Part shown: in pieces, positions 3,209 to 8,086 of the stretch | Layout of the letters: each line of letters opens with the position of its first letter | How positions within the stretch are numbered: the stretch's first letter is position 1 | Assembly (NCBI GenBank): GCA_016930515.1 | Contig: JAFGGO010000103.1 | Coordinates: 1 to 23,216 of the forward strand | From: Promethearchaeota archaeon | GTDB lineage: Archaea; Asgardarchaeota; Lokiarchaeia; Sigyniarchaeales; SOKP01 | Reading direction: 5' to 3' | Length of the DNA: 23,216 bases | Made by a program: the position numbers and the translations under genes | Notes under the pieces: model-generated | Told to the model about the DNA's origin: nothing | Seen by the model: only the letters and a program-made list of their open reading frames with translations | The model's database searches: none

Positions 3209-3784
3209 TTAACCTGTAATATCAAATTCTAAATATACTAAATTTGACGAGATTTCTTTCTTCTGGTTTTTTAATTCGAATTCGAAGTTTGTTTGAAAAT
3301 AATGTTCAATGATGCGGGTGAACAACTCCGAAAAATATTCATCTAAGTCGTGCAATCCTTTAATTACTAGTGTATTATTATTTAGTGTAAAATCAATGCT
3401 ATTGAACCATTTCAAACCGCCAGCGCCTAAAAATTTAATTATGTTTCTAGAATAACTGGGAAAGTGTTCGCTGTCCATCGGTTTTGACACATCAAATCGC
3501 GTCATGTCGGCAAGTAAGTTAGACATTTCGCTAACGATATTGTCAAGAAGCTCTTCGTCTGCTTGGGAGAGAAGTCTAAAAAATGTCCATTTTGTGATAA
3601 TGATCATGTTGTTTGTTTTCCTAAACGATTCAAGCGTTAACCAATTCTTAACGGCTTGTTTAGCGATTAATCCTCTGGATTTGTTTTCTATTTTTGCTAC
3701 TTGATCTAGCTTTTCTATATCTTTATGTGAAAGTCTAAATCCAAGAAAATTATTTCGTTTTTTTATTTCTCCTTTAGGCGACAT
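3209..3784 (-). CDS. Ribbon-helix-helix (CopG/MetJ-like) DNA-binding protein with an uncharacterised C-terminal domain
   Basis: N-terminal FLGFRLSHKDIEKLDQVAKIENKSRGLIAKQAVKNWL matches the RHH beta-alpha-alpha pattern; ATG at 3784 preferred over TTG at 3790. Confidence 0.7.
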   Translation of the reverse strand: MSPKGEIKKRNNFLGFRLSHKDIEKLDQVAKIENKSRGLIAKQAVKNWLTLESFRKTNNMIIITKWTFFRLLSQADEELLDNIVSEMSNLLADMTRFDVSKPMDSEHFPSYSRNIIKFLGAGGLKWFNSIDFTLNNNTLVIKGLHDLDEYFSELFTRIIEHYFQTNFEFELKNQKKEISSNLVYLEFDITG

Positions 3785-3864
3785 TCTCAAGTACTTAAAA
3801 AAAGATTTTAAATATAATATGTTTTCATTGTTTTTAAAGTTATCATGTCGATCAATTGAAAATG

Positions 3865-3894
3865 TTTTTATACTTTGATTACAATTATAACCAA
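3865..3894 (+). promoter_or_regulatory. Putative TATA box (TTTTTATA, 3865-3872) followed by an imperfect 20-bp palindrome TTGATTACAA|TTATAACCAA (3875-3894), candidate operator
   Basis: Palindrome matches its reverse complement at 16/20 positions; lies in the divergent region between the RHH gene and the peptide gene. Confidence 0.35.
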
Positions 3895-3948
3895 TAACTA
3901 CATCAAAAAAAATAAAAAAACTCTTTAAAAATTAAGGAGGAATAAATC

Positions 3949-4098
3949 ATGAAAGTAGAAATCTTTGGTCCCAAGAAAGGAAAAGGAGAGGACGACGATT
4001 ACGACGATGAAGATTGGGATGACGATGAAGACGATGATTGGGACGACGATGAAGACGATGATTGGGACGACGATGGCGATTGGGAAGAGGATATGTAA
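3949..4098 (+). CDS. Small hyperacidic Asp/Trp-repeat peptide (49 aa)
   Basis: Hand translation: MKVEIFGPKKGKGEDDDYDDEDWDDDEDDDWDDDEDDDWDDDGDWEEDM; strong RBS AAGGAGG at 3934-3940, 8 nt before ATG; synonymous GAT/GAC variation between repeats; T-run at about 4138-4146 downstream. Confidence 0.85.
   Translation: MKVEIFGPKKGKGEDDDYDDEDWDDDEDDDWDDDEDDDWDDDGDWEEDM
4012..4074 (+). repeat. 24-bp coding tandem repeat GATTGGGAYGACGATGAAGACGAT (about 2.6 copies; DWDDDEDD)
   Basis: Units at 4012-4035, 4036-4059 and partial 4060-4074. Confidence 0.9.
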
Positions 4099-4184
4099 GA
4101 AATAATTTCTTAACCGTGTCACATTGTAAATATAAGGTTTTTTTTTCAAATAATTAAATCCAATTAAAAATATCCAAACCAATT

Positions 4185-6155
4185 TTGGTAGAGGAAAAAA
4201 ATAATATAATGAAAACAATCCCAAAAATAGAAGCTAAAAATGGTAAGAATAAATTAAATGCCGCTGAACCCGAAAAAGCAACTAAATGTTTGGGGCCAGT
4301 TCTTAACTTAGAAGAATATGTCCGTAGAGACTGGTGGAACCACATCTTTAACTCTTATTATCTTAAAACGGACGGGGATGTTGTCAACGATAAAAATATT
4401 ACTTCTTCAGAGGTTGATCTTTTTTCCGACATTCTCAAATTACAACCAGATCAAGAGATATTAGACTTATGTTGTGGGCAAGGAAGACATTCTTTAGAGC
4501 TCGCAAGGAGAGGATTTAATCGCGTCAATGGTCTTGATAAATCTCGATATCTCATTCAAAGAGCTAAGCGTGTTGCGAAAAAAGAATTCTTACCTGTTGA
4601 TTATCGTATTGGGGATGCTCGAAAACTCCCATACGAAACAGACCGCTTTGATGTGGTGTTTATTTTAGGAAACAGTTTCGGTTATTTTGATACTATTAAC
4701 GACGATCTTCGTGTCTTAAGAGAGGTTAAACGAACGCTTAAACCTTGGGGTCGGATCTTAATCGATCTAACCGATGGGGAATATTTAAAAAAGAATTTCC
4801 AACCCCGTTCATGGGAATGGATAGATAAAAATCATTTTGTCTGTAGAGAAAGATCTTTATCTATAGATAAGCAGAAATTAATTTCGAGAGAAGTCATCAA
4901 TCATGTGAATGAGGGTGTCTTGGTGGACCAATTTTATTCCGAAAGGCTTTATTCGAGGAATAAGATATCAGAATTGTTGATTAAAGCTGGCTTTACCGAT
5001 GTAATATTTCATCAAGAAATATCCCCCAATTCTACGAGAAACCAAGATTTAGGAATGATGGAGAGGCGTTTAATTATTAGCGCACGCGTGAGAAAGCAAT
5101 GGAAACAAAAACACCATAAAATAGTGAAATCTCCAAAGACAGTTGCCGTCATATTAGGAGATCCTAAAAAACCAGATATCTTAAAACCGTCTAGCGTCTT
5201 TGACGACGACGATTTCTTTACCATTGATAAGCTTAAAGAAGCTTTAATTGAATTAGAAGATAAGGAATTCATATATCTTAACAATCACGACACGCTTATT
5301 GCCGACCTTACGAAATTGAAAGGTAAAATCGATTATGCTTTTAACCTATGCGACGAGGGATACAACAATCACGCCAGGCAAGAGTTGCATGTTCCTGCTT
5401 TGTTAGATCTTCTCAAAATTCCTTATACGGGTTCTGGTCCCCAGTGCTTGGCGTTTTGCTACGATAAATCGTTAGTTAGGGGGATCGCTAAAGAAATGGA
5501 CATTCCTGTCCCTGAAGCTATCTTCATTAAACCCGGAGATACTGTTTTTGATCTTCCGTTATACTTTCCTGCACTCGTTAAACCAAACTTTGGAGATTCG
5601 AGCTTCGGTATAACGCAAGATTGCGTGGTCAATAATGGAGAAGAGTTACTTAACGCTATTTCAAAAATTCGCGAAACTTTTGGATACACATATCCAATTC
5701 TAGTTGAACAATTTCTCACGGGAAAAGATTTAACTCTAGGAGTAATCGGTAATCCTCCAGGAAATCACATTGTCCTTCCAATTGCGGAAGAAGATTATTC
5801 TGATTTACCTCCTGGTTTGCCAAAAATTTGTGGATACGAGGCAAAATGGCTTCCCGAATCACCCTATTGGAATTTAAAATCGATTCCCGCAGTATTACCA
5901 GACAAAACGATAGAAATTATCGAGTCTTGCAGTTTAAAATTGTTTGAAAGGTTGGAATGTCGCGATTACGCTCGTTTTGATTGGAGATTAGACGCTGAAG
6001 GCAATCCAAAACTGCTTGAAGTAAATCCCAATCCTGGTTGGTGTTGGGACGGACACCTCGCAAAAATGGCTAAATTTATGGGCCTTTCGTATAATGAAAT
6101 GCTTAAAGAAATACTGAAAGCGACTGAGAGTAGAATATCAAGTAGTTTACCCTAA
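4185..6155 (+). CDS. Fusion of a class I SAM-dependent methyltransferase and a D-Ala-D-Ala-ligase-like ATP-grasp domain
   Basis: N-half ILDLCCGQGRH, GLDKS, GDARKLP, LKPWGRILID; C-half PYTGSG, YDKS, VKPNFGDSSFGI, LVEQFLTG, YARFDWR, EVNPNPG; start could be ATG at 4209. Confidence 0.88.
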   Translation: MVEEKNNIMKTIPKIEAKNGKNKLNAAEPEKATKCLGPVLNLEEYVRRDWWNHIFNSYYLKTDGDVVNDKNITSSEVDLFSDILKLQPDQEILDLCCGQGRHSLELARRGFNRVNGLDKSRYLIQRAKRVAKKEFLPVDYRIGDARKLPYETDRFDVVFILGNSFGYFDTINDDLRVLREVKRTLKPWGRILIDLTDGEYLKKNFQPRSWEWIDKNHFVCRERSLSIDKQKLISREVINHVNEGVLVDQFYSERLYSRNKISELLIKAGFTDVIFHQEISPNSTRNQDLGMMERRLIISARVRKQWKQKHHKIVKSPKTVAVILGDPKKPDILKPSSVFDDDDFFTIDKLKEALIELEDKEFIYLNNHDTLIADLTKLKGKIDYAFNLCDEGYNNHARQELHVPALLDLLKIPYTGSGPQCLAFCYDKSLVRGIAKEMDIPVPEAIFIKPGDTVFDLPLYFPALVKPNFGDSSFGITQDCVVNNGEELLNAISKIRETFGYTYPILVEQFLTGKDLTLGVIGNPPGNHIVLPIAEEDYSDLPPGLPKICGYEAKWLPESPYWNLKSIPAVLPDKTIEIIESCSLKLFERLECRDYARFDWRLDAEGNPKLLEVNPNPGWCWDGHLAKMAKFMGLSYNEMLKEILKATESRISSSLP

Positions 6156-6844
6156 TTTTTATTTAATACTTTTATCTTTTATTCTTTTCCTATAATTATA
6201 TTTTTATTATTTATTTTTTATTATAGAATCCTGATGATTTCTAACGAATCACTTGTTATCTTTATTATCAAAGGATATCGAACAAAAGCATTGTTAAACT
6301 GATTAGTACTGGCTTTAATCTCTCCTTATATCCGTAATAATCTTCTACAGATGAATATTTTCCGTAAAATCCCGTGGAAGATCTACCTATTTTGATATTA
6401 GAATTTTATTCAGAAAATGTGTGTCAAAAAGCGTTTTAAATGGAAAATATCCAACATAAAACCAAAAAGATTTATTAATATGTATTTTTATTTAGTATAT
6501 AGAAAAGAAATGATGATGTGTAATGCAAAATATCGCGCGTGTTCAATTTTCTCAAAAAATAATTTATTTAGCGGACCGCATCAAATTCATATCAAAAATA
6601 TTTGCTCTTTTATCGCATTTAAAAGGCTTTACTTGATATATTACAGAATTACAGTAATTTAATAGCGTTCTTCTTTCGATGAATTTCCCTTTCGATATAA
6701 GAGTAAGAACTGGTAAAATTACCATCTTTTGTTAGCGTTAACAGTCTTAATGGTCTACAAAAGAACCTATTAGAACGCTTAAAACCAAACAAAAATGCTT
6801 AATGAAAAAAAATCAGAATGCAAGTGAAAAATAAGTGATTATCC

Positions 6845-8086
6845 ATGCAAGTTTTTGAAAAAATACGCGTTACAAGCGAGAAATCGGCCCTTAGATCAAA
6901 AAAAGATCAGAATAAAATCTCCTGTTTAAATATAAAAAAGATCTATATCTTTCAATTTCTCATGGGATCGTACATGATCTCTGGAATTATAATCCCGTTC
7001 TTTTTAACATGGGGAAAATTAAATCTTATTGAATTGAGCTTTTTACAAAGTTATTATTTCATATTAGCCTTTATTCTCGAAATACCGTGTGGAATGATCG
7101 CAGATCGCTTGAAAAGAAAATGGATTTTGTTTTTATCAGGGACAGTGAGCGCCGTGGGTGCCTTTATTTATGGAATAATTCCTAATTTAATTCTATTTTT
7201 TGTTGGTGAATCCTTTTTTGCTCTTGGGACCGCTCTAATGTCGGGTTCATGCGAGTCTTTTATATACGATTCTTTAAGAAAGTCAGGAAGAGAAAAAGAA
7301 TTCACCAGGGTATTGGGAAAGGCAGAAAGCTCGTTCTTGATTGGATTTCTCGTGTCGTCGCCAATTGGATCCTTTGTAGGATATTTTATTTCCTTGCCTC
7401 TGGTAATGATCTTGATGGGGGTCCCATACTTCTCCGCTTCCATCGTGTGCTTGTTCTTTAAAGAAACAAAAAACGAACCAAAATCAAAAAAAATAAAGCT
7501 TCTCACTCCAATTAAAGCCAGTCTAAAAAATTTTAAAAAAAATAAAATACTTCGAGCTCTAGTCAAGGACATGCTTCTTTTAGAAATACTAGTGCTCGTG
7601 TTATTCTTAAATTATCAATATTATCTTCACGCTGTATTAAAGGTGCCATTGCTGTATTTTGGTTTTATTGACTCGTCTTTCGTTTTATTAGAAGTTTTTT
7701 TTACGTATTTACTTGCGACTCATAAAAACAAGTTTAAAAACAATAAGGCTTTGTTCTCGTTATTTAGCTTTATCCCAGGAATTTGCTATGTTTTTCTGGG
7801 GATCGTATTTTTCCTTCCCATGAATATTTTATTAATCCTAATTATCGTTGGATTGGGTCTTTCTCGATATGTTATTTTTGCTGATGGGATAAATAAACGA
7901 GTTGAAAAAGAACACAGGGCTACTTCATTGTCGTTAATTAATATGGTCAGGATGTTTTCAAAAGGAATCGTCTTACCGCTATTTGCCTTATTTATTTTAT
8001 GGGATTTAAATTTCACTTTTGTAATGATTGGGGTTATCATCATAATAATAAGCGTATTTTCGAGAAAAAAGATTAAATACCTTTAA
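6845..8086 (+). CDS. MFS transporter
   Basis: 413 aa, roughly 11-12 hydrophobic segments; EIPCGMIADRLKRK MFS motif A; SGSCESFIYDSL; RATSLS. Confidence 0.9.
   Translation: MQVFEKIRVTSEKSALRSKKDQNKISCLNIKKIYIFQFLMGSYMISGIIIPFFLTWGKLNLIELSFLQSYYFILAFILEIPCGMIADRLKRKWILFLSGTVSAVGAFIYGIIPNLILFFVGESFFALGTALMSGSCESFIYDSLRKSGREKEFTRVLGKAESSFLIGFLVSSPIGSFVGYFISLPLVMILMGVPYFSASIVCLFFKETKNEPKSKKIKLLTPIKASLKNFKKNKILRALVKDMLLLEILVLVLFLNYQYYLHAVLKVPLLYFGFIDSSFVLLEVFFTYLLATHKNKFKNNKALFSLFSFIPGICYVFLGIVFFLPMNILLILIIVGLGLSRYVIFADGINKRVEKEHRATSLSLINMVRMFSKGIVLPLFALFILWDLNFTFVMIGVIIIIISVFSRKKIKYL

Follow-up and report, generated by a model that had tools for sequence, protein, structure and literature searches.

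The 23,216-nt stretch of DNA analysed here (in the following, the window) is contig C156 (JAFGGO010000103.1) of a 4.0-Mb metagenome-assembled genome of a Promethearchaeota archaeon, a Loki-type member of the Asgard archaea. On one strand it encodes a 49-residue acidic miniprotein with repeated Asp-Trp (DW) motifs, P0001, followed by P0002, a fusion of an S-adenosylmethionine-dependent methyltransferase with an ATP-grasp ligase of the D-alanine-D-alanine ligase (Ddl) type. An earlier interpretation made from the DNA letters alone, hereafter the sequence-only reading, had proposed that the two form a peptide-modification system, with the miniprotein as the precursor of a peptide synthesized on the ribosome and modified after translation (RiPP) or as a multivalent amino-group carrier. 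Our analysis supports this interpretation in part. With about even confidence, we favour a stand-alone small-molecule ligase/N-methyltransferase encoded beside an independent polyanionic miniprotein, and not an enzyme with its dedicated substrate; a dedicated peptide-modification system appears unlikely to us. We prefer this reading because of the distribution of both partners, because the peptide gene is separately terminated and often divergent from that of the enzyme, and because the enzyme is Ddl-like and acidic. The sequence-only reading had itself cautioned that free amino acids might be the substrates of similar fusions, and it is this caveat that turned out to be the better-supported view.

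A GTDB-wide scan found relatives of the fusion in at least 545 species genomes, and the best 80 were taken for locus comparison. Small open reading frames (ORFs) around the fusion orthologues were detected by stop-to-stop scanning, with flanks reaching 4 kb. The homologues that carry names are mostly labelled as Promethearchaeota and other Asgard groups. Among the best 80, about 65 loci from other phyla have no peptide: their fusions are 62–72% identical to the window protein, and no acidic small ORF lies within 4 kb of the fusion in any of these bacterial and other archaeal loci. The peptide-less fusions come from Planctomycetota, Atribacterota, Thermodesulfobacteriota, Cloacimonadota, Sumerlaeota, Spirochaetota, Thermotogota and Nitrospirota and, among archaeal groups, from Nitrososphaerota, Methanobacteriota, Odin- and Jordarchaeia; counting named phyla alone, at least ten others have the fusion but no such peptide. 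On the fusion tree (L032–L111), bacteria are intermingled with archaea, which at this level of identity implies frequent horizontal transfer of a single-gene function. Because the identity has been kept while the gene moves alone between phyla, P0002 and its relatives would most simply be self-sufficient enzymes acting on ubiquitous substrates.

No neighbour of the fusion is universal across lineages. The genes trmD, rpsP and ffh stand beside it only in Planctomycetes, where the fusion follows ffh-rpsP-trmD; its neighbours elsewhere are scattered amino-acid, peptide and polyamine genes. A LysW-family protein scoring above the cut-off was found in none of five bacterial fusion genomes tested. 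Two candidate partners in bacteria were considered and rejected. The conserved non-acidic small ORFs beside bacterial fusions are only out-of-frame shadows of trmD, and ribosomal protein S16, whose tail might have served as an acidic substrate in the Planctomycete context, has an extension that is rich in Ala, Lys and Glu and not strongly acidic.

The make-up of the enzyme points in the same direction as its distribution. Window proteins were assigned to families with Pfam and NCBIfam, for which 19 window ORFs were scanned. In P0002, Methyltransf_25/11 cover residues 80–190 and Dala_Dala_lig_C (PF07478) residues 450–636 (E 2e-25); the latter is the one strong match for the ligase half, with ATP-grasp_4 staying below the cut-off. 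The AlphaFold2 model (predicted local distance difference test score, pLDDT, of 74.8) matches complete Ddl and VanA structures in Foldseek with TM-scores of 0.66–0.80, normalised to the target. Pfam domains and predicted fold thus agree with the sequence-only reading that a methyltransferase is fused here to a Ddl-type ATP-grasp. The ligase half has the whole three-domain fold of the Ddl/Van enzymes and, in an alignment of 46 fusion sequences with 79% identity per column, the motifs RFDW and EVNPNPG (Mg-ATP) and GYEAKW (omega loop) are invariant. In Ddl, the omega-loop motif is YEAKY, to which the YEAKW of the fusion corresponds, and the loop closes over small substrates. Unlike these enzymes, P0002 stays far under the curated NCBIfam thresholds for Ddl (best model NF002378, 119.4 bits versus 243), is fused to a methyltransferase and belongs to an archaeal host; as the sequence-only reading had stated, there are no murein (peptidoglycan) genes among the window ORFs scanned. 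The N-terminal amino-binding motif of Ddl, Gly-Gly-x-Ser-x-Glu, is absent from the fusion on inspection by eye, and for this reason its acyl donor is probably not plain D-Ala.

For the methyltransferase half, the best sequence relative of solved structure is the bacillithiol N-methyltransferase NmbA, or N-methyl-bacillithiol synthase (9ri2; E 5e-25, residues 41–291), and the Foldseek matches comprise 3d2l, 1wzn, 1y8c, CcbJ and NmbA itself. Both NmbA and CcbJ methylate amino groups of small molecules. The likeness has its limits: identity to NmbA/CcbJ-type relatives is only about 24–30%, so that the significant match to NmbA comes with a low identity where orthology is concerned. The paper on NmbA and bacillithiol found no complete bacillithiol pathway in archaea (PMC12719100). 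Taken together, the Ddl fold, the omega loop and the NmbA/CcbJ-like methyltransferase suggest a small-molecule enzyme.

The charge of the ligase half was also compared. Its net charge is −12.4 in peptide-linked Loki sequences, −12.6 in peptide-less Loki sequences, −13.7 elsewhere and −20.7 in Chloroflexi, and the two peptide-linked groups have no basic substitutions in common apart from two poorly aligned terminal columns. LysW-binding enzymes use basic surfaces, and at the level of sequence no surface of this type is visible in the fusion.

In the reading that we favour, P0002 would be a self-contained, horizontally mobile bifunctional enzyme, whose Ddl-type ATP-grasp would convert a carboxylate into an acyl-phosphate and then join it to an amine, while the N-methyltransferase domain, of the small-molecule type, would methylate the substrate or the product. 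The product would most likely be an N-methylated amino-acid conjugate or dipeptide made from free metabolites. There are precedents for such a design. Ngg joins a GNAT domain to an ATP-grasp and makes N-acetylglutaminylglutamine amide (NAGGN), and GshF joins GshA to a Ddl-like ATP-grasp; like the fusion, they are single polypeptides in which an N-modifying or first-step domain is linked to a dipeptide-forming ATP-grasp, and are encoded by stand-alone, transferable genes, but the partner domain in the fusion is a methyltransferase. For GshF, the ATP-grasp-like nature of the C-terminal domain is documented (PMC7278568). Literature searches for the fusion, or for its pairing with the peptide, returned no description of either.

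The miniprotein, too, appears to have a life of its own. Everything that the sequence-only reading had listed for it is present: a strong ribosome-binding site, a basic N-terminus, a tail with 29 Asp or Glu among 36 residues, four DW motifs and a following T-run. The head, of 13 residues, includes GPKKGKG and holds all lysines of the protein; the tail consists only of D, E, W, Y, G and M, with one Y, one G and a terminal M. The acidic core is encoded by a tandem repeat with a period of 24 nt (3.5 copies, 88% match in Tandem Repeats Finder), and the T9 run starts 41 nt past the stop codon. Its orthologues share the architecture of a short basic head, often with GP(K/R)(K/R), and a D/E tail interspersed with W, Y or F, and end variably: EEDM in the window, and DEEY, EDFY, EDFF, DDD, GYYD and others elsewhere. 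A GGAGG- or GAGG-like motif precedes the start in 12 of 18 orthologues, and in each of the 18 that were checked the stop codon is followed within 80 nt by an oligo-T run of five T or more. Since the ORF recurs beside the fusion together with ribosome-binding-site-like motifs and oligo-T runs, it is a conserved, independently terminated gene. Rfam, terminator and promoter scans of the locus found no element and no terminator hairpin, leaving the T-run alone. The distance to the fusion had been given as 86 nt, which holds if translation of P0002 starts at TTG 4185; ATG 4209, which is preceded by GAGG, is the more likely start, and the gap is then 110 nt.

P0001 has no family match in Pfam or NCBIfam. 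Pfam searches with 19 peptides at E values up to 10 gave only noise and no DSS1_SEM1, although the composition filters of HMMER weaken this test, and the matches in an ESM Atlas look-up scored below 0.85 and were without names. A profile search for the peptide family in 41 genomes was too insensitive, missing even the peptide of the window, probably through composition correction, and a DNA pattern for two W-(D/E)-(D/E) units was used in its place to find DW-repeat ORFs.

Small ORFs of this kind (under 100 residues, with at least 15 D/E in 25 residues) number only five in the 4.0-Mb genome, and the other four look like paralogues of the DW peptide. The paralogue on contig C3 is GPKK-headed and lies beside a pyruvoyl arginine decarboxylase (G000:C3:12519-12665; L112:4020-4166), that on C64 is GPRR-headed, that on C54 (L114, G000:C54:1885-2136) has 83 residues with an N-terminal zinc ribbon (Zn_Ribbon_1) and a DW-type acidic tail, and the fourth is on C106. 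The C54 protein has the architecture of a LysW-like carrier, but its ribbon belongs to a different family. By the DNA pattern, DW-repeat ORFs also occur in five fusion-less genomes of 89–98% completeness (G008, G011, G014, G019 and G023), and on other contigs of three genomes whose fusions have no adjacent peptide (G007, G016 and G018). Some paralogues are syntenic between genomes, with arginine decarboxylase in G000 and G023 (C6; L118:2402-2647) and with cyclophilin and an ADP-forming acetyl-CoA synthetase in G006, G014 and G018; in G024 the neighbour is DUF255. Many of them share the motif (N/D)DG(D/E)(W/Y), and they therefore form a genuine family and not random low-complexity sequence. The 49-residue ORF would be a genuinely coding, separately terminated member of a multi-copy family of polyanionic, Trp/Tyr-studded proteins in Lokiarchaeia. 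These miniproteins are probably disordered and would evolve by repeat expansion; their role is probably electrostatic, in binding basic proteins, polyamines or cations.

Where the two genes meet, they do so in a restricted part of the tree. Of 38 Asgard loci with the fusion, about 21 have an acidic DW-like peptide beside it, and almost all of these are from Promethearchaeota; in the GTDB-wide scan, the peptide adjoins the fusion in 12 of 17 genomes of the window's family and in eight further Promethearchaeota loci. The prospect of finding such peptides upstream of fusion homologues was thus realized in part in Asgard archaea and disappointed in the roughly 65 loci of other phyla. In the fusion tree, all peptide-linked archaeal loci lie within one well-supported clade of 31 sequences, in which the peptide has been lost several times. 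In one subclade, that of the window's group, the peptide is on the same strand, 100–560 nt upstream of the fusion; in the other it is divergent, at a distance of about 380–900 nt. The divergent orientation is found in 11 loci and in most genera, the same-strand orientation in eight loci. A single ancestral arrangement in the family, later inverted once and lost several times, appears to underlie the adjacency, which may reflect co-regulation with an enzyme that does not need the peptide. The two genes would then be a conserved neighbour pair of one Lokiarchaeal family. A further conserved ORF, of about 48 residues, non-acidic and rich in Leu, Ile and Lys, lies directly 5' of the fusion in four loci of one Lokiarchaeal subgroup (L037, L041, L049 at 3835-3981, and L051); it could be a conserved 5' region and not a gene.

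The arrangement of the two genes also bears on the idea that the peptide ORF is a leader for attenuation, in which translation of its Asp and Trp codons would sense charged tRNA and control read-through of the T-run into the fusion. The same-strand order in the window's genus, with ORF, T-run and then the enzyme 110 nt later, would suit such a mechanism; the 11 divergent loci are incompatible with it, paralogues lie far from any such enzyme, and the scans mentioned above gave neither an Rfam element nor a terminator hairpin. We regard it as the least probable of the explanations considered here.

Several observations weigh against the independence of the two partners. The pair of peptide and fusion is the most persistent adjacency of the neighbourhood and has survived changes on both flanks: at least four different upstream flanks (the 193-aa protein also found in the window, a MobA-like nucleoside triphosphate transferase, a PALP enzyme and a CitMHS permease) and at least three downstream flanks (MFS, PAN and CitMHS) are found around it. 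In the window's genome, the block of CitMHS and MobA-like genes is located on contig C14 without a peptide, and the peptide has stayed with the fusion. Among 30 MobA-like loci, the peptide is present only in the three with an adjacent fusion, and in none of eight fusion-less genomes. That the peptide tracks the fusion and not the MobA-like block is the strongest evidence for a functional link. A second set of such observations comes from Chloroflexi. The protein encoded directly 5' of the fusion in L086 has 68 residues, a LysW zinc ribbon (PF21344, 48.6 bits), the element ELDW and a long acidic tail rich in Tyr; no LysX/Z/Y/J/K genes lie near this fusion. Among 61 relatives of the L086 genome, nine have the fusion, and eight of these have a LysW-like gene on the same strand 5' of it, at a spacing of 110–230 nt in seven and of about 740 nt in the eighth, where the tail is non-acidic; of the seven close neighbours, six have a long acidic tail and one a weaker one, and in most of the eight genomes the tail is both acidic and rich in Tyr or Phe. 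No RimK/LysX-type ligase was found in the three LysW-fusion Chloroflexi genomes that were tested. A rough, post hoc estimate puts the probability that chance would give two such adjacencies in about 45 independent contexts at about 0.01.

In the main rival reading, the miniprotein is a headless substrate or carrier of the LysW type. The ligase would then phosphorylate Asp/Glu side-chain or C-terminal carboxylates of the peptide and attach an amine or amino acid, which the methyltransferase would methylate. The peptide would be either a carrier of amino groups at many sites or a protein with a stable modification; the substrate of the enzyme in other phyla would be a free acid resembling Asp or Glu, or an acidic tail that is encoded apart from it. 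In its favour, the pair has been retained while its flanks were rearranged, and in Chloroflexi the partner of the fusion is a true member of the LysW family. The tail of P0001 itself also speaks for this idea, since the (E/D)DW element that recurs in it is part of the EDWGE end of LysW, an end also seen in the LysW of the same genome. LysX, RimK and TTL/TTLL, moreover, are ATP-grasp enzymes that act on acidic tails, and the arrangement resembles the LysW/LysX system of amino-group carrier proteins (AmCP) in that the gene beside the ATP-grasp codes for a small protein whose acidic tail contains Trp. Unlike LysW, however, the window peptide has neither a zinc ribbon (PF21344) nor the EDWGE end, its C-terminus being variable among orthologues, and the fusion mostly occurs without any carrier, retaining its identity of 62–72% in the many loci that have no such partner. 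Its ligase is of the Ddl and not of the RimK/LysX type and has the conserved closing omega loop, its ATP-grasp half is strongly acidic and devoid of basic adaptation, and no releasing hydrolase or LysZ/Y/J/K-like enzyme is encoded among the window ORFs scanned.

The Chloroflexi parallel, too, is weakened on closer inspection. The acid-tailed LysW-like genes are multi-copy, with up to six LysW-like copies per Chloroflexi genome, and also occur in many fusion-less relatives, including G047, where both the fusion and RimK are missing. With or without the fusion, they are always inside a recurrent block that comprises a LysE exporter, a Trans_reg_C protein and the LysW-like zinc-ribbon protein with ELDW (L148–L154, L086:1981-3716). 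We know of no described function for LysW-family proteins linked to LysE and Trans_reg_C in this way. For the amino-group carrier of the sequence-only reading, this leaves the survival of the pair through flank changes and the Chloroflexi LysW on one side, and on the other partners that each occur alone, separate terminators and an acidic ligase; we consider a modified carrier or substrate doubtful, though better than the alternatives that follow. A complex prediction for the fusion and the peptide scored 0.00, which has no bearing either way. The canonical LysW of the window's genome ends in EEDWGE and is encoded on C70 (G000:C70:34636-34743; L143:1444-1674, minus strand), where it is not beside an obvious LysX and has an unannotated 417-aa protein and a multi-pass membrane protein as neighbours.

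A functional link need not be covalent. The peptide could regulate the enzyme, as a substrate mimic or inhibitor, or could buffer or sense a product or substrate that is cationic, for instance a basic amino acid or a compound of the polyamine type. The conservation of the gene pair would fit this, as would a number of neighbours: the paralogous peptide that is syntenic with pyruvoyl arginine decarboxylase in two genomes, a spermidine synthase that adjoins the fusion in two bacterial loci, the LysE basic-amino-acid exporter of the Chloroflexi block and the permeases downstream in Loki loci. A deoxyhypusine synthase is also found near the arginine-decarboxylase-linked paralogue in the window's own genome, a context that might connect the polyanionic peptides with polyamine metabolism. 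This support is circumstantial throughout. The enzyme as a whole is acidic, its loci share no neighbour that would define a pathway of polyamines or basic amino acids, and we think a non-covalent partnership quite unlikely.

The precursor version of the sequence-only reading, with a leader and a repeated core, fits poorly. It would make the system a graspetide-like RiPP, with the basic head as leader or Lys donor and the acidic repeats as a core that is cross-linked or methylated and then exported. The combination of an ATP-grasp, a methyltransferase and an Asp-rich peptide is known RiPP logic, as in fuscimiditide and the imiditides, and on paper the locus resembles graspetide and imiditide clusters; the Lys residues of the head could form lactams with Asp/Glu, and an MFS transporter is encoded downstream. 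The likeness does not extend to the components themselves. The ligase is of the Ddl type, with best folds that are all Ddl/VanA, and does not belong to the clade of the microviridin ligases MdnB/C; the methyltransferase is of a different clade and not of the protein isoaspartyl methyltransferase (PIMT) type; and the core offers no Ser, Thr or Lys as a nucleophile. No protease and no ABC-type peptide exporter is encoded among the window ORFs scanned, in most genera the peptide gene and the fusion point away from each other, and the peptide family is multi-copy and found in housekeeping contexts. Finally, the peptide is not co-conserved with the ligase, being adjacent to it in one Lokiarchaeal clade only, and the enzyme is widespread without any precursor. 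A RiPP pathway is thus very improbable.

We hold an equally low opinion of a proteasome-linked module, in which the disordered acidic miniprotein would act as a tag or adaptor similar to Pup or DSS1; the fusion would ligate or modify it, and the PAN ATPase would read it. Two observations suggest such a module: in eight loci from Promethearchaeota (L009, L017, L035 at 5966-7183, L038, L041, L049, L051 and L075), a PAN-type AAA ATPase (AAA and Prot_ATP_ID_OB_C domains) is encoded just 3' of the fusion and in the same orientation, and the composition of the peptide recalls DSS1/Sem1. In the window, however, PAN is not adjacent, the orthologue of this genome being located on contig C43; the peptide has no convincing match to DSS1_SEM1 or any other Pfam family even at the permissive E values mentioned above, and it has no conserved C-terminal ligation motif. 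To our knowledge, most bacterial hosts of the fusion have no proteasome.

Whichever of these readings holds, the fusion is an uncharacterised and unusually conserved enzyme, given its degree of identity across phyla and the 545 or more species genomes that encode relatives. The gene spreads singly, most of its host lineages are known from anoxic sediments and the subsurface, and the identity of its product would fill a metabolic gap of the lineages that carry it, Asgard archaea included. The DW miniproteins, for their part, constitute an unannotated, multi-copy family of polyanionic micro-proteins in Lokiarchaeia. It is unlikely, in our estimate, that they are headless multivalent carriers loaded by a Ddl-type ATP-grasp, with the zinc-ribbon LysW of Chloroflexi as an independent parallel. 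If they are, Asgard archaea would have a pathway templated by a protein, or a post-translational modification, that has not been described before, and the logic of amino-group carriers would extend to a new class of ligase; if they are not, the case is a caution against inferring a RiPP system from the adjacency of ATP-grasp and acidic-peptide genes.

Table 1. Coordinates of the features of the peptide-fusion locus in the window.
Feature	Position	Strand	Basis
193-aa protein without family match	3209..3790	(-)	no Pfam/NCBIfam match; cluster c3
Shine-Dalgarno-like AAGGAGG	3934..3940	(+)	read directly; 8 nt before the peptide ATG
49-aa acidic DW miniprotein P0001	3949..4098	(+)	translation; orthologous ORFs adjoin the fusion in about 21 Asgard loci
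24-nt (8-codon) tandem repeat encoding WDDDEDDD units	3990..4075	(+)	Tandem Repeats Finder
T9 run, likely archaeal oligo-T terminator of the peptide transcript	4139..4147	(+)	read directly
648-aa bifunctional enzyme P0002: class-I SAM (S-adenosylmethionine) methyltransferase and Ddl-type ATP-grasp	4209..6155	(+)	Pfam, PDB sequence matches, AlphaFold2/Foldseek
Methyltransferase domain, about residues 60–295 of P0002	4386..5093	(+)	PDB sequence match and fold matches
Ddl-like ATP-grasp ligase, about residues 309–645 of P0002	5133..6143	(+)	Dala_Dala_lig_C, alignment, Foldseek
MFS transporter downstream of the fusion	6845..8086	(+)	MFS_1, E 2e-25

The remaining content of the window consists of sulfur, Fe-S and oxygen-defence genes as well as transporters, of which the ORFs scanned include only two, the MFS permease and a CitMHS/ArsB-type permease. 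An 81-aa ORF without family match (6417-6662) is located between the fusion and the MFS gene. On the other side of the pair, the 193-aa protein belongs to a cluster (c3) that, in the window's genus, is what usually lies upstream of the peptide (L001, L003, L004, L006, L011 and L012).

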